DNA of 64,000 bases, taken from contig JAQTPL010000002.1 in NCBI GenBank assembly GCA_028712895.1, positions 5,303-69,302 of the forward strand. Direction: 5' to 3'. A program made the translations under genes and the position numbers. This DNA comes from a bacterium. Its GTDB lineage: Bacteria > CAYTYR01 > UBA6262. Positions 27,951 to 53,385 of the stretch are shown in pieces (within the stretch, counting starts at the first letter, position 1; every line of letters starts with the position of its first letter). The notes under the pieces are model-generated. The model was not told where the DNA came from, searched no databases, and worked only from the letters and a program-made list of their open reading frames with translations.

Positions 27951-29192
27951 CTAGACTCGCGGACTCGGGACTCGCGACTTAGTACTTTTATTATTGACCA
28001 GTGCCTGCACTTTTAACGGCAATCCCAACAGGTTAATAAATCCTTCTGCATCATATTGGTTATATACAGTATCTGCTTCAAATGTAGCCAAGTCTGGCTG
28101 GTATAGAGACTTATCTGCTTTCCGGCCAACTATTGTACAATTTCCCTTGTACAATTTCACCCGTACCGTTCCGGTCACCGTAGCCTGGGTTTTATCGATA
28201 AAAGCATCCAGGGCTTCACGCAGCGGAGAGAACCAGAACCCGGCATAGATCAATTCAGCGTATTTATCACTGACCTTCTTCTTCCAGACCATAGTCTGCC
28301 GGTCCAGGCAAAGCGTTTCCAAAGCCTGGTGCGCAGTCATCAGGATCGTGCCGCCTGGGGTTTCATATACGCCACGAGACTTCATTCCCACGACCCGGTT
28401 TTCTACAATATCCACCCGGCCGATCGCATTGGCTCCGCCGACTTTGTTTAACTTTTCGATCAGTTTGACCCCGTCATATTTAACACCATTAATGCTGACC
28501 GGAATGCCTTTTACAAACCCGATCTCAACATAGGTTGCCTTATTGGGCGCTTTTTCCGGAGACACAGTTAATAAGAACATATCTTCTGGCGGTTCATTCC
28601 AGGGATTCTCCAAGATACCGCCTTCAAAGCTGATATGCCAAAGATTCCGGTCGCTGGAATAAGGTTTCTTTTTGGTAACCGGCACAGGAATACCATACTT
28701 CTTAGCATAAGCGATTTCTTCTTCCCGAGATTTCAGGTCCCAGGTCCGCCACGGGGCAATGATCTTGATCTTCGGGTCAAGAGCTTTAAAGGTTAATTCA
28801 AACCGCAGCTGGTCGTTCCCTTTACCGGTGCAACCATGTGCCACGGCGTCAGCATTTTCCTTTTTAGCGATCTCTATCTGCTTTTTCGCGATCAATGGCC
28901 GGGCGATACTGGTCCCAAGCAAATATTTGTCTTCATAGATGGCTCCGGCTTTGAGCATCGGCCAAATATAGTCTTCCACAAATTCCTTGGTCAGGTCTTC
29001 AATATATATTTTGCTGGCACCGGTTTTCAGGGCTTTTTGCTTGAGTCCGCTCAATTCTTCATTCTGGCCGACATTAGCGGCAAAAGCCACTACTTCACAG
29101 CCATATTCTTTTTTTAGCCAATGGATAATGATAGACGTATCCAGCCCGCCTGAGTAGGCTAATACAACTTTGTTAATTTGTTTGGACATCTT
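27951..29192 (-). CDS. argG: Argininosuccinate synthase
   Basis: [11 protein letters not shown]-loop. Start at ATG 29192-29190 with an AGGAGA Shine-Dalgarno. The longer ORF-track start would run into tRNA-Leu. Confidence 0.9.
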
Positions 29193-29257
29193 AATTTCTC
29201 CTGCTATTTTATAAATTTGAAATTTGAGATCTGAGATTCCTGCTATAGACAGGATAA

Positions 29258-29344
29258 TGGTGCCGCGGAAGGGATTTGAACCCCCAAGTCCTTGCGGACA
29301 CATGGTCCTAAGCCATGCGTGTCTGCCAATTCCACCACCGCGGC
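29258..29344 (-). tRNA. tRNA-Leu(TAG), CCA encoded
   Basis: Cloverleaf folded by hand: acceptor GCCGCGG/CCGCGGC, anticodon loop CTTAGGA, long variable arm, T-loop TTCAAAT. Confidence 0.85.
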
Positions 29345-29452
29345 ATCGCCTTCGGCGAGTTCATAGCTCGTAGTTCATAGTTCGTAGCGATTTATGATTT
29401 TGCTTTTCCTACCAGCTATGAGCTACCATCTCAAATTTCGCTATGCGAAATT

Positions 29453-29524
29453 TGGGCCGTAGAGGACTCGAACCTCCAACCTTATCCTTAAGAGGGATCT
29501 GCTCTACCATTGAGCTAACGGCCC
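29453..29524 (-). tRNA. tRNA-Lys(CTT)
   Basis: Acceptor GGGCCGT/ACGGCCC, anticodon loop CTCTTAA, T-loop TTCGAGT. No CCA encoded. Confidence 0.8.
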
Positions 29525-29528
29525 ATAT

Positions 29529-29622
29529 ATAAAACAGCTCGTAGTTCATAGCTCGTAGTTCATAGGGAAGAATTTATTCTACAATCCCCTATCAGCTAAG
29601 AGCTACGAGCTTATTGCTAATT
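29529..29622. repeat. About 90 bp tRNA-leader repeat, copy A (contains an internal imperfect palindrome agctcgtag...ctacgagct)
   Basis: About 90 percent identical to 29706-29800, with partial copies at 29345-29450 and near the second tRNA array (62.1-62.76 kb). Confidence 0.7.
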
Positions 29623-29698
29623 TGGCGCGCCTGCTGGGACTTGAACCCGGACATCTAGCTCCGGAGGCTAGCGCTCTATCCAATTGAGCTACAGGCGC
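29623..29698 (-). tRNA. tRNA-Arg(CCG), CCA encoded
   Basis: Acceptor GCGCCTG/CAGGCGC, anticodon loop CTCCGGA, T-loop TTCAAGT. Confidence 0.8.
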
Positions 29699-29977: not shown

Positions 29978-31390
29978 TTATTCGAACTTAAACCCTTCTT
30001 TGGAAACTACTCTTATGCAGGCATCCACTACTACTGGATCATACAGTGTCCCTTTATTCTGGGAAATATGTGCCAGTGCTTCACTCATGGATAAAGCCGG
30101 CCGGTAAGGACGATCCGAGGCCATAGCCTCAACAACATCAGCTACTCCCAATATTTTGGCTTCCAGTAATATCTGGTCACCGACCAGTCCTTTAGGATAG
30201 CCTGAGCCATTGGGCCTTTCGTGATGCTGGACCACGATCTTGGCGATCGGCCAGGCGAAATCAATATTTTTCAATATGTCAAAAGCAACCTGAGGATGCA
30301 GTTTCATCAGGTTAAATTCATTCTTATCCAAAGCCCGGGGCTTGGTCAATATCTCTGCCGGCACGCATATCTTGCCAATATCATGCAAGACACCGGCTAT
30401 GCGGATCATTTCCACCTGGTCTTCGCTGAGATTCATCTCCTTGGCAATAGCACTGGCCAGGTTGGCGACGCGGCGCTGGTGGCCGGCAGTATACGCATCC
30501 CGCATTTCCAAGGTCAGGGCCATAGCATTAATAATACCCTCTAAAACCTTTTTCTGCTGGGCCAAGCTCTGATGGACTTTTTCTTCCGCCATGGTACGTT
30601 CAATGATCTCTTTGACCAGTTTTTCATTGATCTCACTGAGCTCGGCGGTACGTAATTCTACTTGTTTTTCCAGGTAATCCCTGGTCACTGTGATCTTCTG
30701 CAGGTTTTCAGCCATTCTATTAAAAGAGCTCGCCAGTAAACCGATCTCATCATTAGTTTTAACAGGTACTTTATAATCCAAGTCGCCACGCGCAATATTT
30801 TGCGTACCGATGACCAACTGGTCGATCGGCTTGCCCAGCATGATCCTGATGAACCAGGAACTGCCGATAGCGGCCAGCAGCATACCAATAGCGCCGATGA
30901 TCCAGATCGTTTTATTAGCTAATTCCAATTTACTGGTCACACTATCCAGGGAAAACACTAATCTCACGTTACCGATAGATTCCATTTCCTTTTCTACCGG
31001 GGCTGTTCCCAGGATCAATTCTTCAGCGCCAGCCGACGATTTGATCTTCTCGGTAATAATGGTCTTGGAAAAAGACCTTGTCTGCTGGCCGGTTTTTTTG
31101 CTGTCTTTAAATAGCATCTTCCCTGATCTATTCTCGATCTCACAGGAAATGACGTCTTTTTGCTGCATGGCTCCTTTGGCAATCCTGGAGATGGAGTCTT
31201 GATCAGCGATCAGCACAGGATATTCACAGCTATTGACTACGCTGTTAAGGAGTGTATAAGCCCTTTCATCCAATTCTACCAGCAAAGCTTTCTTTTCCTG
31301 GTTAATGAAATAGATCGAAAAAAATCCTCCCAGGATGCCGATCACCAGGGTAACCAATATAATTATTTTTTTGTCGATGCCAAATCTCAT
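29978..31390 (-). CDS. Membrane-bound HD-GYP c-di-GMP phosphodiesterase with a periplasmic sensor domain and HAMP
   Basis: Two TM helices flank a periplasmic region of about 150 aa, followed by a HAMP/coiled coil. The HD-GYP motifs are HD in YTAGHQRRV and HHERPNGSGYP. Confidence 0.85.
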   Translation of the reverse strand: MRFGIDKKIIILVTLVIGILGGFFSIYFINQEKKALLVELDERAYTLLNSVVNSCEYPVLIADQDSISRIAKGAMQQKDVISCEIENRSGKMLFKDSKKTGQQTRSFSKTIITEKIKSSAGAEELILGTAPVEKEMESIGNVRLVFSLDSVTSKLELANKTIWIIGAIGMLLAAIGSSWFIRIMLGKPIDQLVIGTQNIARGDLDYKVPVKTNDEIGLLASSFNRMAENLQKITVTRDYLEKQVELRTAELSEINEKLVKEIIERTMAEEKVHQSLAQQKKVLEGIINAMALTLEMRDAYTAGHQRRVANLASAIAKEMNLSEDQVEMIRIAGVLHDIGKICVPAEILTKPRALDKNEFNLMKLHPQVAFDILKNIDFAWPIAKIVVQHHERPNGSGYPKGLVGDQILLEAKILGVADVVEAMASDRPYRPALSMSEALAHISQNKGTLYDPVVVDACIRVVSKEGFKFE

Positions 31391-32316
31391 TGTTTATTCT
31401 CGCCAAAAACATTTTCAGTATTTTTAATGATCTCTGAAGAAAATCTTATATCCAGCCGCGCGGCGGTAGACAGGTTCAAGGAAAAAGTTGTTCTCCGTGG
31501 TTTGACCGGTTTAATATCGCCGGGTTTTTCCCCATTCAGTATGCGCAAAGCTATTTCCCCGGCCTGCCGGCCCAGGTCCACATAGTCGCAATCAATAGAG
31601 AGCAAAGCGCCGGATTTAGAATGATACTTGGATAATCCAATGACGGGGAATCTTTGCCGCAGGCTTTCCAGCAGGAGGTATTTTACAGACTGGGGGAAAT
31701 AGATCTTAGCATCCGGGACCATCAGCAGGCAATTGATCTGCCAGGTTATATCTGCCAACGCTGCTGGTAATTCTTTTTCATTATTTACTTTACGCTTAAC
31801 CAGTTGCAGACCAAGTTCAGCGCTGGCCTGGGTCAAGTCCGCGATCCTGTTGGCTGAATCCGCGGTATAGATCACGCCTATTTTTTTACCTTCAGGAAAT
31901 ACTTTTTGCAGGGATTCCAACTGCATTTTCACTGGCACATCCAGCAGTACCCCGGCAATATTTGTGCCGGTTAATTTTTCCGGATTCAGAACCATGGAAT
32001 ATACTATGGGCTTGTTTTTAAATGACTGCTCAGCTAGTTTGGCGGCCTTGGTGCCGATCGCAAAAATAATATCCGGTTTTTCGGCTATTACCTGGTCCAC
32101 GATTTTCTGCTGATTATTATCCTGCAAAAAATACTCGGTAAACCATAAAGCCATTTTTTTTCCCTTGATCAGCTCTTTAAATCCCGCCCAGGACTGCAAA
32201 TATGGTTCTATATCTGAAGAATAAATAACCGAAACCAGTGCCCGCTCTACCGCCCAGCACTGGCTCCAGGTTAATACCAGTATAATTATGGATAGTAGTA
32301 TCGCTTTAATCTTCAT
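31387..32316 (-). CDS. Periplasmic substrate-binding protein of the uncharacterised ABC-type family (COG2984 / ABC_sub_bind-like), paralog 1
   Basis: Signal peptide. Paralogous to 34533-35480 (shared KPDIIFAIGTKAAKLA..., GVIYTADSA..., LLSIDCDYVDLGRQAGEIA). No ABC permease or ATPase genes nearby. Confidence 0.6.
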   Translation of the reverse strand: MKIKAILLSIIILVLTWSQCWAVERALVSVIYSSDIEPYLQSWAGFKELIKGKKMALWFTEYFLQDNNQQKIVDQVIAEKPDIIFAIGTKAAKLAEQSFKNKPIVYSMVLNPEKLTGTNIAGVLLDVPVKMQLESLQKVFPEGKKIGVIYTADSANRIADLTQASAELGLQLVKRKVNNEKELPAALADITWQINCLLMVPDAKIYFPQSVKYLLLESLRQRFPVIGLSKYHSKSGALLSIDCDYVDLGRQAGEIALRILNGEKPGDIKPVKPRRTTFSLNLSTAARLDIRFSSEIIKNTENVFGENKQ

Positions 32317-32336
32317 TCTTCGGATAAATCCTTTTT

Positions 32337-34511
32337 TTACCAGAGATAGCTTACCTTTACTTCATAATAACAAGGATTGATTTCCTGCATATGGCCGGGG
32401 TCCAAGGAACTGCCGGAAAGATAATGTGCATTAAACACATTCTTGCCAATAACGCTCAGATTAAGATTCTCCCTAAGCACGTTTTTAGCCGTACCAGCCA
32501 GGTCCAGTTGGGTTCCCCCGTTAAAATTATATCCTGACCAGCCGCCACCAGCCCGATCACCGCGCACCTGGATTTTTTGATGGACTTTGTAAACACCAGA
32601 AATACTATATTGATCGGTGAAATCACAATAAGCTCCCAACGCTATATTATAGCGCGGTACCGCTGACTTATTAAAATCTGAGTCTATTTCAGTGTCGATG
32701 ACCCCGGTTCCTCCGGCTAACCCGGAGACAATATTGGCAATTTTGTTCTTCAGTAATTGGCTGCCGGAAATAAAACCTCCCATATTTTTCCAGTCATACG
32801 AAATATTAGCTTCTAATCCCCTTACCTGTTGATCGCCAACGTTAAAGAAGCCACGCAAGTCACCGGTATTCGGCCTGATTGTCGGCCACCCTGGGCCAAC
32901 ATATACAAAGTTGACAAAATCATACAAAATGGCTTGATAATAACTGGCTAGGACTTTCATATTTTTGATCGGTTTCCAATCCACGACCAATTCAGTGGAT
33001 TCTGACGTTGTTGCCTTCTGCGAACCTCTCTTGTTGATATTGTTATATTCTGAATAGCGTTCGTTAGTATTCAATCTGGTAAAAGCCTGTTCATAAATCG
33101 CTTTAAAATACAAATTTTCTAAAGGATTGTAAACGAACGCACTCTTGGGGAAAAATTGGTGCATTTTTTCCCGCTCATCGCGGAACTGGTCCCCGGGATT
33201 GAATTCAGACACATACCGTCCACCGCCAGTCAGGCTGACCTTATCATTCAGTTTATACTTAGCATCAATATATATTTCAGTGGCTGCCACATCATTGCTC
33301 ATTTCAGTCAGAGTCGGTAAATATTCCGGTGGGTCAACGAGATTACCGGTACCAGCCACATTAGGGTCCCAGTTACGCGTAACTGGATTCCATGAAACCA
33401 CAGGGCCTGAGCCTTGGGGGCTCCAGATACTAGCTTGTGCTCCTAAAACGATATTTAATTTATCATTCGGAATAAGTAAAAAACTACTGTCTATCTCATA
33501 TCTTTTTTCCGATTTTAGTTCATAGGAATCAGCATCGTCATTAGCCTTAAAACGAAATACATCATACATCTGATAAAAATTATTAAACCGTATAGTCGTG
33601 GTCCAGTCAGTATTTTTCATAATTTCCGGTTTTTTGATCACAACATTGAGATCATCAGCATAATTTTCTACATATTTGGTTCGGTTAGTACCATCGGCAT
33701 TTGGATGCTCCCGGGCCACCCTTTCTTCCAAGCGCCGATACGCAATAGTAAAATCTTTGTAATTAATATTGGTAAAGATCTGGTAATCCGGCAAAGGATT
33801 GGCTAAATTCGCTCCGTCCATCCGCACATGACTAATAGAACCCCATTCTTCTGCTACCCTGACCGCACCCTTATAGTAAGTCGAATTGATCAGGAATTGA
33901 TAGCTCAAATCTTCCGAAGGATTTTGCGAATAATTAACATTGTATCTGGACATACCATATTCGCCTAAAACGATGCTGGTATTCAAACCCTGGAACGTAT
34001 CCGGGCCCTTATGGATGATATTAATAGTCCCTTGTGTCCCCTGCCCGCCCCAAATTGAAGTACTGGGACCTTTGATAATCTCGATCCGTTCAACATCGTC
34101 AAAAGTGTTAGGCCAGTTATTTTCTCCTAATCCCAAAAAAGTCGGAAAAAGCATGCCATCATAAAGAAAGAGCACTTTATCATTAGCATACCCAGAGACA
34201 CCGCGCAAAGCCAAAACCTCATCAGTTCCCTTAAAAGTATGCCAGCCGCCTTCGATCACCTCAAACAGGTCATTGATATTCCTGATCGCATACCTTTCCA
34301 GAAACTTCCCGGGTATAACCGTAACGTTAGCCGCGGCTTCGTAGGTTTTCTCCGGACGCTTAGTCACGCCGGTGACATTGTCTGAAAATATAAATTCTTC
34401 TTCTGTCCGCTCCTCCAGGCCCTCCGCAGACAATAATTCAGTTTGAACCAAGCTGAATAAAATACCGCAAAATATAGCCGCTAAGATTAACCGGTTGACC
34501 CTGATCTTCAT
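32337..34511 (-). CDS. TonB-dependent outer-membrane receptor, paralog 1
   Basis: Signal peptide and plug domain (ANVTVIPGKFLERYAIRNINDLFE...LRGVSGYANDKVLFLYDGM...IEIIKGPSTSIWGGQGTQGTINII). C-terminal beta-barrel ends ...YYEVKVSYLW (terminal aromatic). Confidence 0.8.
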   Translation of the reverse strand: MKIRVNRLILAAIFCGILFSLVQTELLSAEGLEERTEEEFIFSDNVTGVTKRPEKTYEAAANVTVIPGKFLERYAIRNINDLFEVIEGGWHTFKGTDEVLALRGVSGYANDKVLFLYDGMLFPTFLGLGENNWPNTFDDVERIEIIKGPSTSIWGGQGTQGTINIIHKGPDTFQGLNTSIVLGEYGMSRYNVNYSQNPSEDLSYQFLINSTYYKGAVRVAEEWGSISHVRMDGANLANPLPDYQIFTNINYKDFTIAYRRLEERVAREHPNADGTNRTKYVENYADDLNVVIKKPEIMKNTDWTTTIRFNNFYQMYDVFRFKANDDADSYELKSEKRYEIDSSFLLIPNDKLNIVLGAQASIWSPQGSGPVVSWNPVTRNWDPNVAGTGNLVDPPEYLPTLTEMSNDVAATEIYIDAKYKLNDKVSLTGGGRYVSEFNPGDQFRDEREKMHQFFPKSAFVYNPLENLYFKAIYEQAFTRLNTNERYSEYNNINKRGSQKATTSESTELVVDWKPIKNMKVLASYYQAILYDFVNFVYVGPGWPTIRPNTGDLRGFFNVGDQQVRGLEANISYDWKNMGGFISGSQLLKNKIANIVSGLAGGTGVIDTEIDSDFNKSAVPRYNIALGAYCDFTDQYSISGVYKVHQKIQVRGDRAGGGWSGYNFNGGTQLDLAGTAKNVLRENLNLSVIGKNVFNAHYLSGSSLDPGHMQEINPCYYEVKVSYLW

Positions 34512-34532
34512 GTGCTTCTCCTTTCTGCATGG

Positions 34533-35480
34533 TTATCTATTTGCCTCGCCATAAATATAAGCCGCCTCACGCTTAATAGCCGTTGGTATTTCCAGGGCTA
34601 TTTTTTCAGCTACGGCTAAATTCAATGAAACCTTGATTTGTCTTGGCATTACCGGCGGCATGTCCGACGGCTTGGCTCCGTCAATTATCTTGATCGCTAT
34701 CTCCCCGGCCTGCCGGCCTAACTCCAGGTAATCGCAGTCAAAGGAAATGACCGCGCCATCTTTACTATAAAACCGGGATAATCCCACTACCGGGAATTTT
34801 TCTTTTATACTCTCCTGCAATAAGTACCGTACGGATTGGGAAAAATAAATGGTCGTATCAGGCAACATAATAAAACATTCTATTTGCGGCCGTATATTCC
34901 TGAGCGCATCGGGAAATTGTTTTTCTGAAGCGATCTTTTTAGATACCAGCGGCCAATCCAGCTCCTTACAAGCTTGTTGTAATTCAGCCAATTCGGCTAA
35001 CGACTTATCCGAGTAGATCACGCCGAGCTTTTTACTGGTGCCATAGATCTTCTTCAGGTATTCCAGTTTGAGCTTAGCGGGTATATCCATCAGCACCCCG
35101 GAAACATTGGACGCTTCGATCATTTCCGGCTCGAGCACCAGCACAAAAACAATGGGAATAGCCTTGAAATTGGCTTGAGCCAGTTTAGTGGCTTTGGTCC
35201 CCAAAGCAAGAATAAAATCAGGTTTCTCGGCATTGACCTGGCCTAAGATCTTTTCCGGGGATTGTTCTTTCAAGATATATTTTGAGATCCAAAGAGCCAC
35301 TTTTTTTGCCGTTAAAAATGACTTAAACCCTTCCCAAGCTTGCTGGTATGGTTCACTGTCGGAAGAATAGATAACTGAAACTATGATTCGTTCAGCAGCA
35401 TAGGCACGATCTGCTGCATAAAGCGGACTTAAGCAAAAAACAACTAATAACAAAATCCCAATAAGTGCTACACATTTCAT
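34533..35480 (-). CDS. Periplasmic substrate-binding protein (COG2984-like), paralog 2
   Basis: Signal peptide. Paralog of 31387-32316. Confidence 0.6.
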   Translation of the reverse strand: MKCVALIGILLLVVFCLSPLYAADRAYAAERIIVSVIYSSDSEPYQQAWEGFKSFLTAKKVALWISKYILKEQSPEKILGQVNAEKPDFILALGTKATKLAQANFKAIPIVFVLVLEPEMIEASNVSGVLMDIPAKLKLEYLKKIYGTSKKLGVIYSDKSLAELAELQQACKELDWPLVSKKIASEKQFPDALRNIRPQIECFIMLPDTTIYFSQSVRYLLQESIKEKFPVVGLSRFYSKDGAVISFDCDYLELGRQAGEIAIKIIDGAKPSDMPPVMPRQIKVSLNLAVAEKIALEIPTAIKREAAYIYGEANR

Positions 35481-35500
35481 ATATTGATGGTGCTCCTATA

Positions 35501-37657
35501 TTACCAGAGATAACTTGCCTTTACTTCATAATAAGAAGGATTAATTTCCTGCATATGGCCTGGATCCATGGCACTACCCGTCAGGTAATGCGAATTAAAA
35601 ACATTCTTACCTATTATGCTCAGATCCAGGTTCTTAGTACCGACATTCCGGGCTACAGCGGCCAGGTCCAACTGGGAGCCTCCCTCAAAATTATAACCAG
35701 ACCAGCCACCGCCACTGCGATCACCTCTGACCTGTATTTTTTGATGGACCTTATAAACGCCGGAGATACTATAGTTCTGCGTAACATCGTAATATGCGCC
35801 TAGGGAAATATTGTATCTCGGAACCGCTGACTTATTAAAATCTGAGTCTATTTCAGTGTCGATGACCCCAGTCCCACCGGCCAGCCCCGGAACAATGTTA
35901 GCGATCTTGTTTTTCAACAACTGGCTGCCGGAGATGAATCCGCCCATATTCTTCCAGTCATAAGAAATATTCGCCTCCAAGCCCTTTACTTGCTGGTCGC
36001 CCACATTAAAGAACCCACGTAGGTCACCGCTATCCGGCCTGATAACCGGCCAACCCAAACCAACATAAACAAAATTAACAAAGTCAAACAATATCGCCTG
36101 GTAGTAACTGGCCAGGACTTTCATGTTTTTTATCGGTTTCCAATCAATTACCAATTCTGTAGATTCGGTGGTAGTGGCTTTCTGCGAACCACGTTTATCT
36201 ATGTTATTCTGCTCGGAATACCTTTCAAAAGTATTCAACCTGGTGAAAGCCTGCTGATAAATACCTTTAATATAAAGATCGCCCAGTGGATTGTAAACCA
36301 CAGCCATTTTGGGAAAAAACTTGTGCAACTTCTCTCTTTCATCCCGAAACTGGTCACCCGGGTTAAATTCTCCCACATAGCGGCCACCGCCAATGAGGTC
36401 AACTTCTTCTAAAATTTGATACTTTACATCAAGATAGGTTTCAAAAGCAGCGATATCGTTAGCCATTTCTGTAAAAGTCGGCAAAAATTCCGGTGGATTA
36501 AAGATATTGCCCGAATCGGGAACATTAGGATCCCAATTACGGGTAATCGGATTCCAGATAACAGAAGGACCTGATCCCTGTGGACTCCACAACCCAGCTT
36601 GGGCTCCTACTACCAGGTCCAGTTTCTCTGTTGGGACGATCATTAAATTTGAGTCAACTTCGTATCTCTTCTCGGTTTTCATCTCATAAGCGCCGCTGCC
36701 CGCGTTCGGATCAGTAATATGGAACACATCATACATCTGGTAAAAATTATTGAAACGAAAAGTCGAAGTCCATTCTGTGTTCTTAAAATATTCCGGTTTC
36801 TTTAGCACCAGGTTAACATCATCCGCGAAATTTTCAATATAGAGCTTTCTCACTAATCCGGGGGCGGGCATTTCTTCCCTGGTCACCCTGCCTTCCAAGC
36901 GGCGGTACGCCAAGGTCACATCACGATAAACCAAATTAGCAAAAACCTGGTAATCCGGCAGAGGATTAGTTAGATCGGCACCGTCGACTGACCTTATTTG
37001 TATACCGCCCCATTCTTCGGTCATACGCCGAGCGCCTTTGTAAAAAGCAGAGTTCACCAAAAATTGGTAACTAATATCTTCAGTTGGTTTTTTGGCATAA
37101 TTAATGTTATACCGTGACATTCCATACTTACCCACCACCAGGCTAGTTCTTAAACCCTGAAACTGGGTAGCACCTTTATGAATGATGTTGACAGTTCCCT
37201 GCGTACCTTGACCACCCCAAATGGAAGTATTCGGCCCCTTAATTATTTCAATCTTCTCCACATCATCGAAAGTATTCGGCAACCGGTTCTCACCCAAACC
37301 TAAAAATGTCGGGAAAAGCATGCCATCATAAAGGAACAGGATCTTATCATTAGCATACCCGGAGACACCGCGTAGCACCAATACCTCATCTACACCTTTC
37401 ATAGTGTGCCAGCTGCCTTCTAGTATTTCAAATAGATCATTGATATTACTGATCGCATACCTTTCCAGAAATTTTCCGGGGATCACTGTCACATTAGCTG
37501 CAGCTTCATAGGTTTTTTCCTGCCGCTTAGTGACACCGACAACAACTTCTTCGAATAATATTTGTTCTTCGGTCATTTCTTCTTGGGCAAAGGCTGGCGG
37601 ATTTCTTAGCCCTACTATCACTGCTAAAATTGCTATTATTCGTAATCCCTTAAACAT
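35501..37657 (-). CDS. TonB-dependent outer-membrane receptor, paralog 2
   Basis: Same plug and barrel architecture. Long stretches are identical to paralogs 1 and 3. Confidence 0.8.
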   Translation of the reverse strand: MFKGLRIIAILAVIVGLRNPPAFAQEEMTEEQILFEEVVVGVTKRQEKTYEAAANVTVIPGKFLERYAISNINDLFEILEGSWHTMKGVDEVLVLRGVSGYANDKILFLYDGMLFPTFLGLGENRLPNTFDDVEKIEIIKGPNTSIWGGQGTQGTVNIIHKGATQFQGLRTSLVVGKYGMSRYNINYAKKPTEDISYQFLVNSAFYKGARRMTEEWGGIQIRSVDGADLTNPLPDYQVFANLVYRDVTLAYRRLEGRVTREEMPAPGLVRKLYIENFADDVNLVLKKPEYFKNTEWTSTFRFNNFYQMYDVFHITDPNAGSGAYEMKTEKRYEVDSNLMIVPTEKLDLVVGAQAGLWSPQGSGPSVIWNPITRNWDPNVPDSGNIFNPPEFLPTFTEMANDIAAFETYLDVKYQILEEVDLIGGGRYVGEFNPGDQFRDEREKLHKFFPKMAVVYNPLGDLYIKGIYQQAFTRLNTFERYSEQNNIDKRGSQKATTTESTELVIDWKPIKNMKVLASYYQAILFDFVNFVYVGLGWPVIRPDSGDLRGFFNVGDQQVKGLEANISYDWKNMGGFISGSQLLKNKIANIVPGLAGGTGVIDTEIDSDFNKSAVPRYNISLGAYYDVTQNYSISGVYKVHQKIQVRGDRSGGGWSGYNFEGGSQLDLAAVARNVGTKNLDLSIIGKNVFNSHYLTGSAMDPGHMQEINPSYYEVKASYLW

Positions 37658-37684
37658 TTGTTTTTCTCCAATCTCATTTTCGGT

Positions 37685-39832
37685 TTACCAGAGATAACTG
37701 ACTTTTGCTTCATAATATTCAGGATTTATTTCCTGGAAATGACCCGGGTCCATGGCACTGCCGGTACCAAAATGGGAATTAAATACATTTTTACCGATAA
37801 TACTTAAAGCCAATCCCTTAGTTAAAACATCGTGGAAATTGGCCGCCAGGTCAAGTTGCGCTCCCCCGTTAAAATTATAACCAGACCAGCCGCCGCCATT
37901 TAGATCCCCCCGGACCTGTATCTTTTGATGGACTTTATAGACACCGGACAGGCTGCAATGCTTGTTCAGGTCATAGTAAGAGCCTACGCTGATATTATAT
38001 CTGGGTACTGAAGATTTATTGAAATCACTATCTATTTCCGTATCAATGACTCCGGTTCCTCCAGCTAAACCAGGGACAATATTAGCGATCTTGTTCTTCA
38101 ACAGATGACTGCCGGAAATAAACCCGCCCATATTCTGCCAGTCGTAGGATATATGAGCTTCTACTCCTTTGACCTGATGATCACCGACATTGAAGAATCC
38201 TCTTAATTGACCAGGACCCAAAGTCGGCCAGGAAGTACCGGTATACACAAAATTAACAAAATCATAAAGAGTCGCTTGATAATAACTGGCCAGGATTTTC
38301 ATATTATTGATCGGCCGCCAGTCAAAGACTAATTCACTGGATTCACTGGTGGTCGCTTTTTGACTGCCTCTCTTGTCTATATTGATCTGTTCCGAGTATC
38401 TTTCTGTTGTATTCAACCTGGTAAAAGCTTGTTGATATATCCCTTTCACATAGACGTTCGCCAAGGGATTATAAACCACCGCCAATTTCGGGAAAAATTT
38501 ATGGAGTTTTTCCCGCTCATCCCGGAATTGGTCGCCGGGATTAAATTCGCCGACATACCGGCCGCCGGCGGTTAAACTTAGTTCTTTCAAGACATCATAT
38601 TTAGCGTCAAGGTAGGTCTCCACTGCCGCGATATCATTACCCATTTCCGTGAAAGTAGGCAGGAATTCGGGCGGATCGATCACATTGCCGCTACCCGGCG
38701 TATTAGGATCCCAGCTCCTGGTCCAAGGATTCCAGGATGCGGTAGGACCGGAACCCTGCGAGCTCCAAACTCCCGCTTGCGCGCCAAAAATTATGCTTAA
38801 CTTGTCCACCGGGATGATCAATAAATGGGAATCAACTTCATATCTCTTCTCCGCTTTCATTTCATATGTATCGGGAAGATCATTGGGATTAAAATGAAAT
38901 ACGTCATACATCTGGTAAAAATTATTGAACCTGATAGTCGTGGTCCAATCAGTATTTTTGAAATAGTCCGGTTTCTTTATTACCGCGTTCACATCATCGG
39001 CATAATTTTCAATATATTTTTTACGGTAACTGCCGTCATAGTTGGTAATATGCTTGGCCACTCTTTCTTCCAACCGGCGAAAAGCCAGGGTAAATTCTTT
39101 ATAGGTTATATTGGCAAAAACCTGGTAATCCGGCAGGGGATTGGCCATGTCCGCTCCATCTACTACCTGTGACGTCACAGTTCCCCAACCTTCAGAAGAC
39201 CTCCAAGCCCCTCTATAATAAGCAGTATTTACCAGGAATTGATAGCTCAGGTCAGGATCAGGATTCTGGACATAATTTAAATTATAACGGGCCATGCCAA
39301 ACTTGCCGACGACCAGGCTGGTTTTCAAACCCGTGAACTGTTCCGCTCCCTGATGGATAATATTGATCGTCCCCTGCGTGCCCTGCCCTCCCCAAACTGA
39401 GGTATTAGGACCTTTGATGATCTCTATTTTTTCCACATCATCGAATGTATTCGGCCAATTATTCTCGCCCAAACCCAAAAAGGTCGGGAAAAGCATCCCG
39501 TCATAGAGGAAAAGGATCTTATCATTGGCATAGCCGGAGACACCACGTAGCACTAAAACTTCATCCGATCCCTTCCAGGTATGCCAGCCGCCTTCCAGCA
39601 CTTCAAAAAGGTCATTCATATTGCGGATCGCGTAACGTTCCAAAAATTTCCTCGGGATGACTGTAACATTGGCCGCGGCACTAAATGTTTTCTCCTGCCT
39701 CCTGGTAACGCCGGTGACTACTTCTTCAAATAATATCTGTTCTTCCGTCATTTCTTCGGTTATTATTGCCGCTTGGCTGTTACCGCCAATGAAAATCATC
39801 AAGATCAACGCCATGATCGCCTTTTTTATCAT
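37685..39832 (-). CDS. TonB-dependent outer-membrane receptor, paralog 3
   Basis: Same architecture. Ends ...YYEAKVSYLW. Confidence 0.8.
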   Translation of the reverse strand: MIKKAIMALILMIFIGGNSQAAIITEEMTEEQILFEEVVTGVTRRQEKTFSAAANVTVIPRKFLERYAIRNMNDLFEVLEGGWHTWKGSDEVLVLRGVSGYANDKILFLYDGMLFPTFLGLGENNWPNTFDDVEKIEIIKGPNTSVWGGQGTQGTINIIHQGAEQFTGLKTSLVVGKFGMARYNLNYVQNPDPDLSYQFLVNTAYYRGAWRSSEGWGTVTSQVVDGADMANPLPDYQVFANITYKEFTLAFRRLEERVAKHITNYDGSYRKKYIENYADDVNAVIKKPDYFKNTDWTTTIRFNNFYQMYDVFHFNPNDLPDTYEMKAEKRYEVDSHLLIIPVDKLSIIFGAQAGVWSSQGSGPTASWNPWTRSWDPNTPGSGNVIDPPEFLPTFTEMGNDIAAVETYLDAKYDVLKELSLTAGGRYVGEFNPGDQFRDEREKLHKFFPKLAVVYNPLANVYVKGIYQQAFTRLNTTERYSEQINIDKRGSQKATTSESSELVFDWRPINNMKILASYYQATLYDFVNFVYTGTSWPTLGPGQLRGFFNVGDHQVKGVEAHISYDWQNMGGFISGSHLLKNKIANIVPGLAGGTGVIDTEIDSDFNKSSVPRYNISVGSYYDLNKHCSLSGVYKVHQKIQVRGDLNGGGWSGYNFNGGAQLDLAANFHDVLTKGLALSIIGKNVFNSHFGTGSAMDPGHFQEINPEYYEAKVSYLW

Positions 39833-39991
39833 TCGACTTCTCCTTTTTAGTATCCCATTAAAAAACCCGAATAAAGGCTATCTACCCTTACTCAGGTTTT
39901 TAAATTTGATACAGATATATTATCGCTGAACATCAACGTTAAGCGCATATGTTTATATATCACAATGCGTTATAAGATATCAACTAAAATC

Positions 39992-41623
39992 TTATCCCAG
40001 AATATCCTTTAGATCCTGGTCAGGAGTCGTTATTGGCTTGATATTGAATTTATCCACGAGTACCTGCAGGACATTGGGTGTGATAAAAGCCGGCAGGGTC
40101 GGGCCCAAACGGATATTCTTGATCCCCAGCGACAACAAGGTCAATAGAATGCATACTGCTTTTTGTTCGTACCATGATAGTATCAGCGACAACGGCAGGT
40201 CATTCACGCTGCAATTAAAGGCCACGGCTAAAGCTGAAGCGATCTGGATCGCTGAATAGGCATCATTACACTGGCCGCAGTCCAGGAGACGAGGAAAATC
40301 CCCGATCGTGCCAAAATCCAGACGATTGAACCTGAACTTGCCGCAGGCTAAAGTTAAAATAATACAGTCACTTGGCACTTTCTGGGCAAATTCGGTATAA
40401 TAATTCCGTCCCGGCTTGGCCCCATCACAGCCGCCGATCAGGAAAAAGTGCCTGATTTTTTTATCTTTCACCGCATTGACTATTTTGTCGGCCAGGCTCA
40501 AGACTGTTTTATGGCCAAAGCCCACCATGATCTCTTTTTCTATCTTATCTTCAGTAAAACCACCCAGCTTTTTAGCCTGTGCAATGATCACTTTAAAATC
40601 TTTTTTTCCGTTCTTGGCTTCAATATGCACTTCTCCGGGATATTCCACCAAGCCGGTAGTGTAAATTTTCCCACTATACGATTCATTCGGCTTCTGGATA
40701 CAATTAGTGGTCATCAGTATCACCGCCGGGATCCCGTCAAATTCCTTATGCTGGTTCTGCCAGGCGCTGCCGAAATGACCAACCAGGTGCTTATGCTTCT
40801 TCAGTTCAGGATACCCGTGCGCCGGCAACATTTCGCCATGCGTATAGATATTGACGCCAATCCCTTCAGTCTGTTCCAGGAGTTGCTTCAGGTCCAGCAG
40901 GTCATGCCCGGAGACAATGATCGCCGGCCCTTTTTTCACACCCAAAGGTACATTAGTCGGAACCGGTGAACCAAAAGTATCAGTATGCGCTTTATCCAGT
41001 ATTTCCATGCATTTCAAATTAACCTTACCAAATTCCATGATCAGGGAGACATAATCCCCCGCCGTCAACTTTGGATCCACCAACGCGGCCAATCCCTTAT
41101 AGAAGAAAGCATTCACTTCATCATCTGTCCGGCCAAGAACAGCAGCGTGATCAGCATAAGCTGCCATGCCTTTTATCCCAAAAAGTAATATTTCCCGTAA
41201 ACTGCGGATATCTTCATTAGGGCTCGGGTCTGACAACAATCCTACTTCCAATCCCTGGGCGATCAAGCCAGCCATAGTATCAGCCGGCTGCCAATGCACC
41301 GGCTCCGGCGCATCAGCGGGAATTGCTCCCACTGCTTTTTTCAGTCTTTCCATTATTTTGTATGCCGCATATACTCTGACGGCGATCTTCTCTGAATCAA
41401 AATTAACATTAGTAATGGTGGTGAATAAACCTGTTTGCAGGAATATATCTGCTTCTTTATCTTTAATCCCTTTTGCCCGGGCGAGCAGGCCCAGGAAAGC
41501 GATCCCTTTCATACTAAAGATCAGCAGATCTTGCAGTGTGGCAGTTTCATGGGTTTTACCGCACACTCCATGCTGGGTGCATCCAGTACCTTTTGCGGTT
41601 TGCTCACATTGCCGACAGAACAT
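39992..41623 (-). CDS. hcp: Hybrid-cluster protein / hydroxylamine reductase
   Basis: N-terminal MFCRQCEQTAKGTGCTQHGVCGK cysteine motif and an Hcp-like fold along its 543 aa. Confidence 0.9.
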   Translation of the reverse strand: MFCRQCEQTAKGTGCTQHGVCGKTHETATLQDLLIFSMKGIAFLGLLARAKGIKDKEADIFLQTGLFTTITNVNFDSEKIAVRVYAAYKIMERLKKAVGAIPADAPEPVHWQPADTMAGLIAQGLEVGLLSDPSPNEDIRSLREILLFGIKGMAAYADHAAVLGRTDDEVNAFFYKGLAALVDPKLTAGDYVSLIMEFGKVNLKCMEILDKAHTDTFGSPVPTNVPLGVKKGPAIIVSGHDLLDLKQLLEQTEGIGVNIYTHGEMLPAHGYPELKKHKHLVGHFGSAWQNQHKEFDGIPAVILMTTNCIQKPNESYSGKIYTTGLVEYPGEVHIEAKNGKKDFKVIIAQAKKLGGFTEDKIEKEIMVGFGHKTVLSLADKIVNAVKDKKIRHFFLIGGCDGAKPGRNYYTEFAQKVPSDCIILTLACGKFRFNRLDFGTIGDFPRLLDCGQCNDAYSAIQIASALAVAFNCSVNDLPLSLILSWYEQKAVCILLTLLSLGIKNIRLGPTLPAFITPNVLQVLVDKFNIKPITTPDQDLKDILG

Positions 41624-41665
41624 AATTTCCTCCTTTTAAAAACGATTACACAGATTTTTTAAAGC

Positions 41666-41683
41666 GATTACACCGATTACAAG
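41666..41683. repeat. 18 nt GATTACA-type motif, copy 2 (plus a third gattaca heptamer at 41644-41650)
   Basis: Identical to 21896-21913. Lies 43 nt upstream of the hcp start. Confidence 0.6.
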
Positions 41684-41689
41684 TAAAGA

Positions 41690-42502
41690 CTAAAGCCATT
41701 CCTCAGATAGGATTTGTCCTTCAATGCCTACTACTATCTTTTTTACAGGAACTTTACGGGTTACTCCCTCCATTGCTTGTTGTACCAAACGCACCAATCC
41801 ATTACAGCATGGTACCTGCATGATCATGACTGTAAGCGTATTTATCTTTGCTTCCTCTATCCAGGACTTGATCTTAGCTACATACTCATCCTGGCTGCTA
41901 TCCAATTTCGGACAGGCAATAGCGAGTGACTTGTTCTTTAGATGATCAGCATGGAATCCGCCTAATGCATAAGCCACGCAATCCGCTACCAGTAATACAT
42001 CCGCTCCCTGGAAATAGGGAGCTGCCGGAGAGATGAGATGCATCTGAACAGGCCATTGCCTCAACTGGGAACCGATGTCCCCCTGGGCTCTTTCCGTAGC
42101 CTTTGTTTTTTTTCTCATATCCATCATTTTTGTGCCCGGGCAACCACACGGAATAGTATGTTTTATTCCTTTTTCTTTCATATAGCCAAACGCCTGTTTT
42201 AAATATTCCTGCTGGTTATGAGCCTTAAGGTGTTCTAAGTGAGCCTGAAGAACTTCCGGACCTTGCTTCACAATATTGGACATAACTTTTTTTTCTTCAT
42301 ATGGTTCAGCTTCCCGCTCTATAATAGTGATAGCGTCTTCCGGACAAGTCCCGATACAAGCGCCCAAACCGTCACAGAGCAAGTCTCCTACCAACCTGGC
42401 TTTACCTTTGATAATTTGTATCGCGCCTTCAGGACAGCCTGTGGCGCATAATCCGCAACCAGTGCATTTTTTTTCATTAATTGTTATAATTTGTCTTTTC
42501 AC
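41690..42502 (-). CDS. 4Fe-4S dicluster ferredoxin-domain protein with an uncharacterised C-terminal domain
   Basis: Two CxxCxxCxxxCP motifs at the N-terminus (CTGCGLCATGCP, CDGLGACIGTCP). Sits between the Rrf2 regulator and hcp. Confidence 0.7.
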   Translation of the reverse strand: MKRQIITINEKKCTGCGLCATGCPEGAIQIIKGKARLVGDLLCDGLGACIGTCPEDAITIIEREAEPYEEKKVMSNIVKQGPEVLQAHLEHLKAHNQQEYLKQAFGYMKEKGIKHTIPCGCPGTKMMDMRKKTKATERAQGDIGSQLRQWPVQMHLISPAAPYFQGADVLLVADCVAYALGGFHADHLKNKSLAIACPKLDSSQDEYVAKIKSWIEEAKINTLTVMIMQVPCCNGLVRLVQQAMEGVTRKVPVKKIVVGIEGQILSEEWL

Positions 42503-42511
42503 ACGATTCCC

Positions 42512-42913
42512 TTAATCTTTAATGAGATCAGCGATAGAAATCGCCGCTAACTCGTCAATTACTTTTTTTTCTATACCCCGAATCTTATGCCGTAGAGGGC
42601 AGGTCCCGATATCAGGGCATATTTTCTTTTTAAAGATGCAGCGGGTTTTAATAAAGTCTTTCTGGAATACTTCTACCAGGTCTTTCAGCTTGATCTTCTT
42701 CGGCGATTTGCGGAAACTAAATCCACCACCTTTGCCTTTAGCAGACTGCAGTATCCCTTTTTTGCTTAATACTTGCAATAGCCTGCGGGAAAATGCCCGC
42801 GGCATATGCAAATCATCCACCAGAACTTTAGCCGAACTTATCTGCTGCGGCGACTTGGCCATATGCACCAAGGCCCGTACTGCGTAATCTGTGTCACGAT
42901 TGATCAGCTTCAT
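42512..42913 (-). CDS. Rrf2-family transcriptional regulator (NsrR/IscR-like, Cys-containing)
   Basis: MKLINRDTDYAVRALVHMA...ISSAKV winged-helix N-terminus. C-terminal cysteines (CIFKKKICPDIGTC) suggest an Fe-S sensor. Start taken at the internal MKLINRD. Confidence 0.75.
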   Translation of the reverse strand: MKLINRDTDYAVRALVHMAKSPQQISSAKVLVDDLHMPRAFSRRLLQVLSKKGILQSAKGKGGGFSFRKSPKKIKLKDLVEVFQKDFIKTRCIFKKKICPDIGTCPLRHKIRGIEKKVIDELAAISIADLIKD

Positions 42914-42966
42914 AACATAATGATACCAATATAGTATCATTTTGTCAAGAAAAAAAATAATTTATT

Positions 42967-45827: not shown

Positions 45828-46101
45828 TTTATCCTCCTCGATCTTAAAATGTTCAACGCAAATTATTGGGGTCCCAGTCTGGGTTAAAGATAGAACTTTT
45901 AGGATAAAAGCTTCCCTACCGCTTTGAATCTATCAAATAGCCTTAAAGCGTCCCCTCAAAAGATTGCTTAATCAAAGCAAAAACATCCTTAATATCTGTA
46001 ATTCGAAAGCACAAATTGGTTAAAAGCAATATTTTAACTCTTTCGGCATATCTATAATTATACCTAATTAAAGAACTTCAAAATGATTCTTTATAGCTTA
46101 C

Positions 46102-47064: not shown

Positions 47065-47106
47065 CTCCTTGAATTCTAATTTTAATACTTGCTCAATTTT
47101 TTTATA

Positions 47107-49743: not shown

Positions 49744-49745
49744 AT

Positions 49746-51761: not shown

Positions 51762-51907
51762 ATTATACCTTATCCTTTAAAGATTATCCAACTGTAATTA
51801 TTAAGCTCTATTGTGGCTTATTTTACAATAAAGAAATGTCAAAGGCAAGCTATTTCCCATTGAAACCTGAAGACATACAAAAATAATTGGAAAAACAAAG
51901 CCAATTA

Positions 51908-53331: not shown

Positions 53332-53385
53332 TGAAAATAATTTTTCTCCCTGGATTTTTCCTAAATCAATAAGGGAACATAACCC

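Follow-up and report, generated by a model that had tools for sequence, protein, structure and literature searches.

A gene cluster of TonB-dependent receptors, PF04392 binding proteins and an HD-GYP phosphodiesterase as a candidate envelope-spanning sensor

Known binding-protein sensors and the layout of the cluster

A periplasmic binding protein controls a membrane c-di-GMP enzyme both in Vibrio cholerae (NspS-MbaA) and in V. parahaemolyticus (ScrB-ScrC) (PMC8050422), and the activation of kinases and GGDEF-EAL enzymes by such binding proteins (SBPs) is an established mechanism (reviewed in PMC8050422). LuxP-LuxQ and TorT-TorS are histidine kinase systems in which a periplasmic class I co-sensor of a membrane transducer is encoded among signalling genes (PMC8050422). 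SBP genes that feed transporters adjoin transporter genes, and those that stimulate kinases adjoin signalling genes (PMC8050422). YfiBNR (TpbB) of Pseudomonas aeruginosa is built from an outer-membrane protein, a periplasmic regulator and a TM-sensor-TM-HAMP c-di-GMP enzyme (PMC4655355).

We analysed a 64-kb stretch of a contig (the window) from an uncultured bacterium, probably one of the Elusimicrobiota, in which six co-directional open reading frames (ORFs) on the minus strand encode, in order of transcription, the TonB-dependent receptor (TBDR) paralogues TBDR3 (37685-39832; 715 aa) and TBDR2 (35501-37657; 718 aa), the binding protein SBP2 (34533-35480; 315 aa), TBDR1 (32337-34511; 724 aa), SBP1 (31387-32316; 309 aa) and a membrane HD-GYP phosphodiesterase (29978-31390; 470 aa). 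Gene boundaries, gene order and tight spacing agreed with the original prediction: the gaps measure 27, 20, 21 and 20 nt in transcription order, and SBP1 and the HD-GYP gene overlap by 4 nt. No terminator-like site was found on the minus strand within the cluster's intergenic gaps. Upstream, the gene hcp (Prismane) ends at 39992, and the 159-nt intergenic region 5' of TBDR3 (39833-39991, minus strand), where an AAAGGAG ribosome-binding site precedes the TBDR3 ATG, is likely the promoter region.

As in NspS-MbaA, an orphan SBP gene adjoins one whose product, a TM-periplasmic domain-TM-HAMP protein, is a predicted enzyme of cyclic-di-GMP turnover, transporter genes are lacking and the SBP would be the ligand-recognising part (PMC8050422). 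The locus differs from that system in SBP family (PF04392 rather than SBP_bac_8 or SBP_bac_3), in having a single PAS/PDC-like sensor domain rather than a dCache-like one, in its HD-GYP rather than GGDEF-EAL output and in the TBDRs within the cluster. LuxPQ and TorTS follow the same co-sensor logic, and histidine kinases also make up most of the family to which the window's sensor belongs. They use another SBP family and another sensor-domain family; their clusters hold no outer-membrane receptor and the window's output is a phosphodiesterase. In Bacteroides systems that join SusC-type TBDRs to hybrid two-component sensors such as BT1754, ligand enters by the TBDR and a periplasmic module with a binding-protein fold senses it and drives signalling. 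In those systems kinase and binding module are parts of one protein, a SusD protein accompanies the TBDR and the output is transcription of the polysaccharide-utilisation locus, whereas here the SBP is a separate protein.

Domain content of the six proteins

Both binding proteins are secreted and, as foreseen, belong to PF04392 (ABC_sub_bind), with 118.6 bits for SBP1 and 92.7 bits for SBP2 against a gathering cutoff of 25.9 bits. They are 50% identical to each other. SBP1 orthologues in close relatives are 83-85% identical; those of SBP2, which has no adjacent sensor of its own, are only 58-59% identical, and SBP2 has therefore evolved faster. An AF2 model of SBP1 (pLDDT 92.7) shows a complete two-lobe class I fold, with CD0873 (Tyr), SP1069/TrpX (Trp) and VC_1101 (Phe) as best Foldseek matches (TM up to 0.77-0.80). 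These share its Pfam family and two-lobe fold, and every PF04392 protein of solved structure serves as a transport SBP for Trp, Tyr or Phe (PMC10443332, PMC6816091). The three matches are encoded in ABC operons, whereas the window's SBPs adjoin sensors and are not lipoproteins; identity to the transport SBPs is only 18-24%. Cleft-region residues D202, S229, Y245, Q251 and N281 are invariant or nearly so across the subfamily, and in alignment S229 and Y245 fall on the two positions that determine specificity in VC_1101 and CD0873 (PMC6816091). We propose SBP1 as a co-sensor of the HD-GYP protein.

That protein comprises TM1, a periplasmic domain, TM2, HAMP, a coiled coil and the HD-GYP domain. 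The periplasmic sensor domain expected between two TM helices was recovered, with TM segments at ~8-30 and ~161-185 enclosing ~130 aa (residues ~31-160; 30911-31300, minus strand). Its AF2 model (pLDDT 94) combines four strands with one long and one short helix and is PAS/PDC (sCache)-like, and Foldseek matched it to WalK, the periplasmic domain of a LapD orthologue and CitA. The nearest structural counterparts of the sensor module, WalK (WalK-YycHI) and the LapD-type periplasmic domain (LapD-LapG), work by docking protein partners, and we propose this domain as the docking site of SBP1.

On the cytoplasmic side, the HAMP domain (residues 185-231; 30698-30838, minus strand) scores 61.8 bits against PF00672, with helices AS1 and AS2 in the model, and the HD-GYP catalytic domain (residues 292-454; 30029-30517, minus strand) matches PF13487 (HD_5) at 135 bits (E 2.6e-39). 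Its HD and HHERPNGSGYP motifs are intact, and alignments to PmGH (4mcw) and V-cGAP3 (5z7c) show conservation at H, HD, H, HHE..GxGYP and D. Among homologues of known structure the best match is a 3'3'-cGAMP phosphodiesterase, and the nucleotide hydrolysed here would be c-di-GMP, as originally predicted, or 3'3'-cGAMP.

All three TBDRs have a Plug domain, and Pfam detects the barrel (TonB_dep_Rec_b-barrel) in TBDR1 and TBDR2. TBDR3 is matched by Plug alone (E 7e-10), yet it is 75% identical to TBDR2 (71% to TBDR1) and carries a signal peptide and a C-terminal Trp. The original prediction took the receptors for recent duplicates with long identical stretches, which the alignments contradict: identity is 71-75% at the amino-acid level and 65-81% at the nucleotide level (300-nt blocks), the longest exact nucleotide match is 18-47 nt and identical runs (28-35 aa) occur in the proteins only. 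Three copies are also present in a relative (L012) whose SBP1 is only 83% identical, and TBDR3, being 83% identical to the first TBDR of that locus, is therefore its orthologue. Judged by this divergence, the duplications that produced the TBDRs are old. TBDR1 is the receptor found in all close relatives, which carry one to three copies, and it occupies the position of the single TBDR of L001, L010 and L014.

A binding protein-sensor pair across phyla

In a comparison with ~30 other genomes, the gene after the SBP gene encoded this N-terminal sensor domain in almost all related loci (phmmer annotation, with which the Pfam context agrees). Three apparent exceptions all resolve to HAMP transducers: L024 and L034 read CheW-SBP-SBP-HAMP, the latter also including an MCP signalling domain, and in L015 an AAA_21 insertion stands ahead of a HAMP kinase. 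The pair spans Elusimicrobiota, Omnitrophota, Nitrospirota, Eisenbacteria and others. Stop and start of the two genes overlap by 4 nt, as in the window, at 16 of 27 genome loci and by 1 nt at 2 more.

The 84 clusters that share the N-terminal domain carry HAMP (82), HATPase_c (75), MCPsignal (3) and HD_5 (2), and 13 of them match sCache_4; among the 26 genes downstream of the SBP in genome loci are 20 with HAMP, 15 kinases, 3 with HD_5 and 1 MCP. HD-GYP output was found only in the window's own clade (2/84 clusters; 3/26 genome loci). Every evaluable locus pairs the SBP with a member of the sensor family, which speaks for the original prediction, but HD-GYP is rare and a TBDR lies near the SBP in about two-thirds of loci (directly upstream in 11/21). 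Because about one-third have no TBDR nearby, among them Nitrospira L004, L030-L033 and L036, the receptor is not obligatory for the module. The conserved module is therefore narrower than predicted, a PF04392 SBP plus a PAS/PDC-like HAMP transducer, not TBDR-SBP-HD-GYP.

Pairwise SBP distances correlated with those of the periplasmic domain at r 0.90 (0.86 without the close clade), a value reached in 0 of 2000 permutations, and with those of HAMP at r 0.71 (0.61 without the close clade). SBP divergence therefore appears to track the periplasmic domain more closely than HAMP, an effect to which shared inheritance and the short, saturating HAMP segment partly contribute.

Alternative readings and a proposed mechanism

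A YfiBNR-like form of surface signalling, in which the ligand-occupied periplasmic face of a TBDR titrates an SBP-like regulator off the sensor and no import is needed, is unlikely. The three proteins would fill the tiers of YfiB (outer membrane), YfiR (periplasm) and YfiN (TM-periplasmic domain-TM-HAMP-output) (PMC4655355), TBDR and SBP copies are unmatched in number (3 versus 2 here, 1 versus 2 in relatives) and the periplasmic domain alone gives full-length matches to CHASE8 (E 0.03) and a YfiN/DgcN model (E 0.009), both weak and below any curated threshold. Weak matches to the NCBIfam families NF053590 (TOL_0244 TonB receptor) and NF053592 ('sensor histidine kinase, YfiR-like protein-associated'), which, as read from their curators' names, form a cassette of TBDR, small periplasmic protein and HAMP sensor, likewise suggest that a comparable set of TBDR, periplasmic protein and kinase exists. 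These scores fall far under the cutoffs (TBDRs 55-62 versus 645 bits, sensor 33 versus 194), the matched parts are limited to the Plug and the TM2/HAMP region, and the window's periplasmic partner comes from a different family. SBP1, with both lobes complete and its cleft residues conserved, is a binding protein and not a member of the YfiR family (DUF4154). YfiB, moreover, is a Pal-like lipoprotein rather than a TBDR, and YfiN makes c-di-GMP (GGDEF), which the window's enzyme is predicted to degrade. Only ~25-30 residues precede the Plug in the TBDRs, in which Pfam found no STN or N-terminal signalling extension, and the one-third of loci that have no TBDR also weigh against titration by a receptor.

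Slightly less probable again is nutrient uptake with a signalling side branch, in which TBDR and SBP feed a remote ABC importer and the SBP also informs the sensor (compare MBP-Tar and GltB-GtrS). The transport role of every solved PF04392 protein fits such a scheme, certain SBPs serve transporter and receptor alike (PMC8050422) and the relative L001 has an APC-type amino-acid permease 3 kb upstream. Our inspection covered the 64-kb window and flanks of up to 10 kb, and the genome may carry an ABC importer at another site, which counts against the sensor reading. Within the window, however, the SBPs have no ABC partner: UvrA was the only ORF with Walker A and LSGGQ, and no polytopic permease was found (no ORF with at least four predicted TM segments), so that their predicted orphan status stands. 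ABC permease or ATPase genes, which the original prediction had regarded as the mark of a simple transporter, were found in 0 of ~33 distinct related loci, with no Walker A plus LSGGQ ORF within 10 kb of the SBP, a result in favour of that prediction; polytopic proteins near these loci were an APC permease, Wzy and a TPR protein. The adjacency of transporter-feeding SBP genes to transporter genes (PMC8050422), the translational coupling of SBP gene to sensor here and the low identity of SBP1 to transport SBPs also argue against uptake.

We consider it least probable that the PAS/PDC-like domain reads a small molecule of its own and the SBP is a non-signalling chaperone, buffer or scavenger: the domain could bind ligand by itself, as PDC/sCache domains such as its fold match CitA commonly do, and this counts against the SBP-sensor reading, but the domain is minimal, SBP and sensor genes are strictly paired with 4-nt overlaps across phyla and output types, and SBP divergence follows the periplasmic domain better than HAMP.

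Because the SBP is conservedly paired with membrane sensors of this kind, sensing, and not import, is the most likely role of the cluster. We give a probability of roughly 60% to the reading that it is an envelope-spanning, binding-protein-dependent sensor, gated by TonB-dependent uptake, that controls cyclic-dinucleotide hydrolysis, and not a transporter. The TBDRs would bring ligand through the outer membrane in an energised step, and their number (one to three among close relatives) may tune which ligand enters or how much. SBP1, and probably also SBP2, would capture this small ligand as soluble periplasmic class I proteins; the SBP, loaded or unloaded, would then dock on the small periplasmic domain of the inner-membrane protein, and the signal would travel by way of TM2 and HAMP into the cytoplasm, where the HD-GYP domain would change its hydrolysis of c-di-GMP or 3'3'-cGAMP. 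The domain content, the lack of ABC genes, the coupled SBP-sensor gene pair found across phyla and output types, and the intact folds and catalytic motifs are observed; we infer that the SBP touches the sensor and that the TBDRs import the ligand, as well as what the ligand is, in which direction it regulates and which nucleotide is hydrolysed. Across the wider family, as far as domain annotation can tell, the sensor stays constant while its output changes: in most members a histidine kinase, in some a chemoreceptor and, rarely, HD-GYP.

Gene layout, receptors and surroundings

All six genes of the cluster are minus-strand open reading frames at exactly the coordinates originally predicted, in the order TBDR3 (37685-39832, 715 aa), TBDR2 (35501-37657, 718 aa), SBP2 (34533-35480, 315 aa), TBDR1 (32337-34511, 724 aa), SBP1 (31387-32316, 309 aa) and the membrane phosphodiesterase gene HD-GYP (29978-31390, 470 aa), where TBDR denotes a TonB-dependent receptor and SBP a periplasmic binding protein. 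Successive genes are spaced by 27, 20, 21 and 20 nt, SBP1 and HD-GYP overlap by 4 nt, and each of the five exported proteins has a hydrophobic, signal-like segment at its N-terminus. Since no minus-strand terminator-like site lies inside these short gaps, a single operon is plausible from the sequence; a promoter and terminator scan gave no signal exceeding the shuffled expectation.

Each receptor carries a Plug domain (PF07715; 39.7-46.4 bits, cutoff 23.9), preceded by a candidate TonB box, EEVV(T/V)GVT, picked by eye, and each ends in a C-terminal Trp. The barrel (PF00593) was matched in TBDR2 and TBDR1 at 58-67 bits; TBDR3 gave no barrel match at E ≤ 0.01, yet its full-length identity to TBDR2 is 75%. 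About 25-30 residues separate the signal peptide from the Plug, and a FecA-type transducer is ruled out, as the receptors match Plug and barrel only and lack the N-terminal STN extension.

The receptors had been described as recent duplicates with long identical stretches, a description that does not survive comparison of the copies. Protein identity between them is 71-75% and DNA identity 65-81% over 300-nt blocks, with longest exact nucleotide matches of 18-47 nt and longest identical protein runs of 28-35 residues. The identical stretches are therefore conserved protein segments of old paralogues, and tandem duplication or gene conversion is ruled out as a recent event by exact nucleotide matches of at most 47 nt. 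TBDR1 is nonetheless closer to its own paralogues (71-73% identity) than to its positional orthologues (65-68%), so older concerted evolution or lineage-specific turnover is possible. The six-gene order of the window recurs in the related locus L012 (SBP1 83% identical; TBDR3 orthologue 83% identical), two receptor copies are found in L011 (Elusimicrobia UBA6262) and one in L001/L014 and L010/L013; receptor copy number is the variable part of the cluster.

Unrelated genes flank the cluster on both sides: hcp, an Fe-S protein, an Rrf2 regulator and a MEDS-PAS kinase upstream, and three tRNA genes followed by argG, argH, an outer-membrane efflux protein and a patatin-like protein downstream. The Rrf2 regulator, 4Fe-4S protein and hybrid-cluster protein (Prismane; 39992-42940), directly upstream, occupy the identical position in L010 and look like a nitrosative or redox stress unit distinct from the sensor cluster. 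Between this trio and a low-GC island lie a MEDS-PAS histidine kinase (42967-45255) and a stand-alone MEDS protein (45216-45827). In L010 (1-4600), DUF1015 and response regulator genes sit directly upstream of Rrf2, so the MEDS stretch (42967-45827) may be lineage-specific. The island itself (46000-60130; GC 0.32-0.39 against about 0.45) ends at tRNA-His (60050-60126) and looks like an integrated mobile element, with a large serine recombinase (58503-60071, plus strand), an IrrE/M78 peptidase (57553-58512, plus strand), a Prim-Pol/CHC2 primase (53952-56429, minus strand), a type III restriction-modification pair (Mod 49746-51761, Res 48154-49743) and several open reading frames lacking a Pfam match. 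On the other side, tRNA Leu-tag, Lys-ctt and Arg-ccg (29258-29698) separate HD-GYP from argG; the argG frame as mechanically listed (27951-29303) runs into tRNA-Leu, and translation probably starts at the internal Met of MSKQINK, near 29190.

Binding proteins and their conserved pairing with HAMP sensors

Assignment of the binding proteins to PF04392 (COG2984 type) was confirmed by Pfam, with SBP1 at 118.6 and SBP2 at 92.7 bits (cutoff 25.9). The alignments span profile positions 43/47-292, the N-terminal beta-alpha unit being divergent. Against the NCBIfam TrpX tryptophan SBP model (NF041285) the two scored 90 and 80 bits, below the equivalog cutoff of 390. An AF2 model of SBP1 (pLDDT 92.7) has the complete two-lobe class I binding-protein fold, and its top Foldseek matches (6hni, 6hnj, 3lft and 3lkv; E 1e-20 to 1e-22) are three solved PF04392 proteins, CD0873 (Tyr), SP1069 (Trp) and VC_1101 (Phe), to which it is 18-24% identical and best fitted in the open form (TM 0.77-0.80).

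Across the sensor-linked SBP subfamily, Y39, G88, D202, S229, C243-D244-Y245, Q251 and N281 are invariant or nearly so. Such conservation of the cleft is an argument that these proteins still bind a small ligand, of a similar class throughout the subfamily. Side-chain specificity in VC_1101/CD0873 is set by two positions, Ala-246/Glu-263 and Tyr-262/Tyr-279 (PMC6816091), with which S229 and Y245 of SBP1 align (alignment offset inferred); two mappable positions are too few to name the ligand. Orthologues of SBP1 are 83-85% identical and those of SBP2 only 58-59%. The best database match of SBP1 is 92% identical. All its database matches came from MAGs or metagenomes, and so did all 141 strong matches in a profile search for a cultured host; as every member found comes from a MAG, testing will need heterologous expression.

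We compared gene neighbourhoods with precomputed Pfam annotation for nine SBP1 matches (83% down to 27% identity) and surveyed genomes by SBP alignment, which yielded 28 species-representative loci. Every evaluable related locus links the PF04392 gene to one encoding a HAMP membrane protein. That gene follows the SBP immediately in 20 of 26 cases, including 15 histidine kinases, 3 HD-GYP proteins and 1 chemoreceptor. The apparent exceptions keep the linkage: L024 and L034 read CheW-SBP-SBP-HAMP, with an MCP signalling domain in L034; an AAA_21 gene is inserted ahead of a HAMP-HisKA_2 kinase in L015; and a receptor gene is placed between SBP and sensor in L022. The 4-nt overlap of SBP stop and sensor start seen in the window recurs in 16 of 27 genome loci; two more have a 1-nt overlap. 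The loci carry the lineage labels Elusimicrobiota/Endomicrobiales, Omnitrophota, Eisenbacteria, Desantisbacteria, Cloacimonadota, Ignavibacteria, Firestonebacteria, Pirellulales and Nitrospira. In 11 of 21 loci the gene upstream encodes a TonB-dependent receptor, and roughly two-thirds of loci have one nearby.

Pairwise distances among 28 SBP-sensor pairs were strongly correlated between SBP and periplasmic domain (r = 0.90; 0.86 without the close clade) and less so between SBP and the HAMP of the same sensor (r = 0.71; 0.61 without the close clade; 28 pairs); the observed correlation was reached by none of 2000 permutations. This shows that SBP and sensor genes are inherited together. The correlation is compatible with a co-evolving contact surface and stops short of proof of contact, because shared phylogeny and the short HAMP segment both feed the difference in r.

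In aggregate, the conserved entity is a PF04392 SBP with a PAS/PDC-HAMP transducer. The proposed recurrence of receptor, SBP and HD-GYP together is borne out for SBP and HAMP sensor in all evaluable loci; the HD-GYP output is confined to one clade, and TonB receptors, though frequent, are dispensable and vary in copy number.

Several of these neighbourhoods have features of their own. After the SBP, L009 (10918-14467) encodes a membrane protein with HAMP only (369 aa), three DUF7793 proteins of SpoIIAA/STAS-like type and a separate kinase, so that the sensor output is divided into a partner-switching-like set. The distant relatives L007 (4292-11793) and L008 (4358-11862) have a radical-SAM gene between the TonB receptor and the SBP-kinase pair; a sigma-54 activator and an amidohydrolase follow. 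These neighbours could be a clue to what kind of chemistry the sensed compound has. Among the related contigs, CAYTYR010000010.1 (L013/L010) shares most synteny with the window; it is labelled 'uncultured Clostridia bacterium', and the other close relatives are labelled Elusimicrobia. The Clostridia label of this MAG is probably wrong, because it is hard to reconcile with genes for TonB-dependent receptors.

Periplasmic sensor domain and HD-GYP output

In the window HD-GYP protein, transmembrane segments at about 8-30 and 161-185 enclose about 130 residues. Searching the N-terminal 186 residues (TM1, periplasmic domain and TM2, with HAMP excluded) against 1.84 billion representative proteins returned 239 clusters at E ≤ 1e-3, and the match was always N-terminal, in proteins of widely differing length. 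Among 84 full-length members scanned, HAMP was found in 82, HATPase_c in 75, HisKA in 67, MCPsignal in 3 and HD_5 in 2. At E ≤ 1e-3, sCache_4 (PF09984) matched 13 of these 84 homologues and CHASE8 (PF17152) matched 2. The window domain gave no sCache_4 match, and it reached CHASE8 at E 0.03 (14.9 bits, below the cutoff of 27); searched alone, it gave further sub-threshold matches to SpoVT_C (E 8e-4) and a YfiN/DgcN model (E 0.009).

An AlphaFold model of residues 1-235 (pLDDT 94) has a long helix out of TM1, a short helix, a four-stranded sheet and one helix running via TM2 into HAMP. Foldseek matched it to a WalK full-length integrative model (E 5e-11), the periplasmic domain of a LapD orthologue (TM 0.68), the WalK/YycG extracellular PAS domain and CitA. 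The modelled fold and these matches indicate that the window domain is probably a minimal PAS/PDC (single Cache-like) domain. Its conserved surface includes E56-Y57-P58/Q77-D79/C83. WalK and LapD dock protein partners through their PAS/PDC-like domain, and by analogy such docking fits a model in which the SBP acts as co-sensor.

The protein matches HAMP and HD_5 (135 bits for HD_5) and contains the HD-GYP motifs VLHDIGK and HHERPNGSGYP. In alignment with PmGH (4mcw) and V-cGAP3 (5z7c), the H, HD, H, HHE..GxGYP and D positions of the catalytic domain are kept; the extra Glu of the PmGH tri-iron site is apparently Tyr, as in V-cGAP3 (residue offset inferred). These two are the closest solved homologues, at scores that cannot separate them (V-cGAP3, E 4e-35; PmGH, E 2e-33), and the best of them, V-cGAP3, is specific for 3'3'-cGAMP; c-di-GMP specificity of the window enzyme is an assumption. 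No GGDEF motif was found in the window.

Cysteines are conserved in the periplasmic parts of both partners, C196/C243 in SBP1 and C55/C83 in the HD-GYP protein; 86% of pairs have C243, within the DCDY motif of the SBP, and 86% have C83 of the sensor. Such residues could be joined in disulfides or could make the partners sensitive to redox state, as in YfiR.

Proposed relay, its alternatives and its implications

We propose that the receptors would let a ligand into the periplasm, that SBP1, and perhaps SBP2, would bind it and dock on the PAS/PDC-like domain, and that HAMP would pass the signal to the HD-GYP domain; we give this reading a probability of about 60%. What the sequence data establish is the gene content, the lack of transport genes, the coupled pairing conserved across outputs and the intact folds and motifs. 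The import step, the SBP-sensor contact, the ligand, the sign of regulation and the nucleotide are what we infer. The original prediction of a signalling relay rather than a transporter was right in its main thrust: on the two points checked, no ABC genes were found and SBP and sensor co-occurred, with a conserved unit narrower than the one proposed.

For its outer-membrane tier, the cluster is like Bacteroides SusC with hybrid two-component sensors. With that tier it also resembles YfiBNR (PMC4655355), and in function it is like NspS-MbaA, ScrB-ScrC, LuxPQ and TorTS (PMC8050422). It falls outside all these systems, differing in SBP family, sensor domain and output. Sequestration in the manner of YfiBNR, or surface signalling, is an unlikely explanation. 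The cluster gave no Pfam or NCBIfam match to DUF4154 (YfiR), to an OmpA-like/Pal-like protein (YfiB) or to GGDEF. A YfiR-like half-domain identity of the SBPs is ruled out by the full two-lobe PF04392 fold in the SBP1 model (SBP1 alone modelled). Partial NCBIfam matches to NF053590 (TOL_0244 family TonB-dependent receptor; 55-62 bits, cutoff 645) and NF053592 (HK_near_YfiR_like, 'sensor histidine kinase, YfiR-like protein-associated'; 33 bits, cutoff 194) suggest by their names that curators know an analogous cassette with another periplasmic partner.

A dual-use SBP that also supplies an ABC importer encoded elsewhere is quite improbable. In public annotation the surveyed loci carry the labels 'ABC transporter substrate-binding protein' or 'putative tryptophan/tyrosine transport system'. 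The lack of an ABC partner for the SBPs, claimed at the outset, was upheld: no cognate permease or ATPase gene was found in the 64-kb window or within 10 kb in related loci. Walker A and LSGGQ occur together in one open reading frame of the window, UvrA, and no frame there has four or more predicted transmembrane segments; applied to every related locus, this motif scan gave no ABC ATPase within 10 kb of the SBP. Polytopic proteins in the related flanks include an APC-type permease, a Wzy-like ligase and a TPR protein, among others, none ABC-permease-like. Least probable is that the sensor binds the ligand itself and the SBP is an accessory.

In the proposed relay the proteins of the sensor-linked SBP subfamily would act as co-sensors, and because of this their transport labels are probably wrong. 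The combination is new: only a handful of binding-protein-dependent sensors have been studied, and a 2021 review of SBP-dependent receptors includes none with a PF04392 SBP, an HD-GYP enzyme or a link to TonB-dependent uptake (PMC8050422). We found no published account of the TBDR-SBP-HD-GYP arrangement in the literature.

A bolder reading, which we offer tentatively and consider rather doubtful, is that these loci may represent a previously undescribed, modular, envelope-spanning sensing chassis, widespread in uncultivated phyla (Elusimicrobiota, Omnitrophota, Nitrospirota, Eisenbacteria, Brocadia and others). A non-transport branch of PF04392 would be the obligate co-sensor of a minimal PAS/PDC-HAMP transducer, onto which interchangeable kinase, chemoreceptor or HD-GYP outputs are grafted, with TonB receptors as the gate. 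At its furthest, the SBP would touch the receptor itself, so that surface signalling would need neither import nor a FecA-type extension.

Recognizing the module would correct annotations in uncultivated phyla, and the family offers a natural swap series, one input with different outputs, useful for studies of HAMP-mediated signalling. Recognition would also indicate how, in several candidate phyla, a signal taken up by active import is linked to kinases, chemotaxis or cyclic-dinucleotide turnover. If the chassis reading is true, these cells respond to a molecule that can pass the outer membrane only by active uptake.
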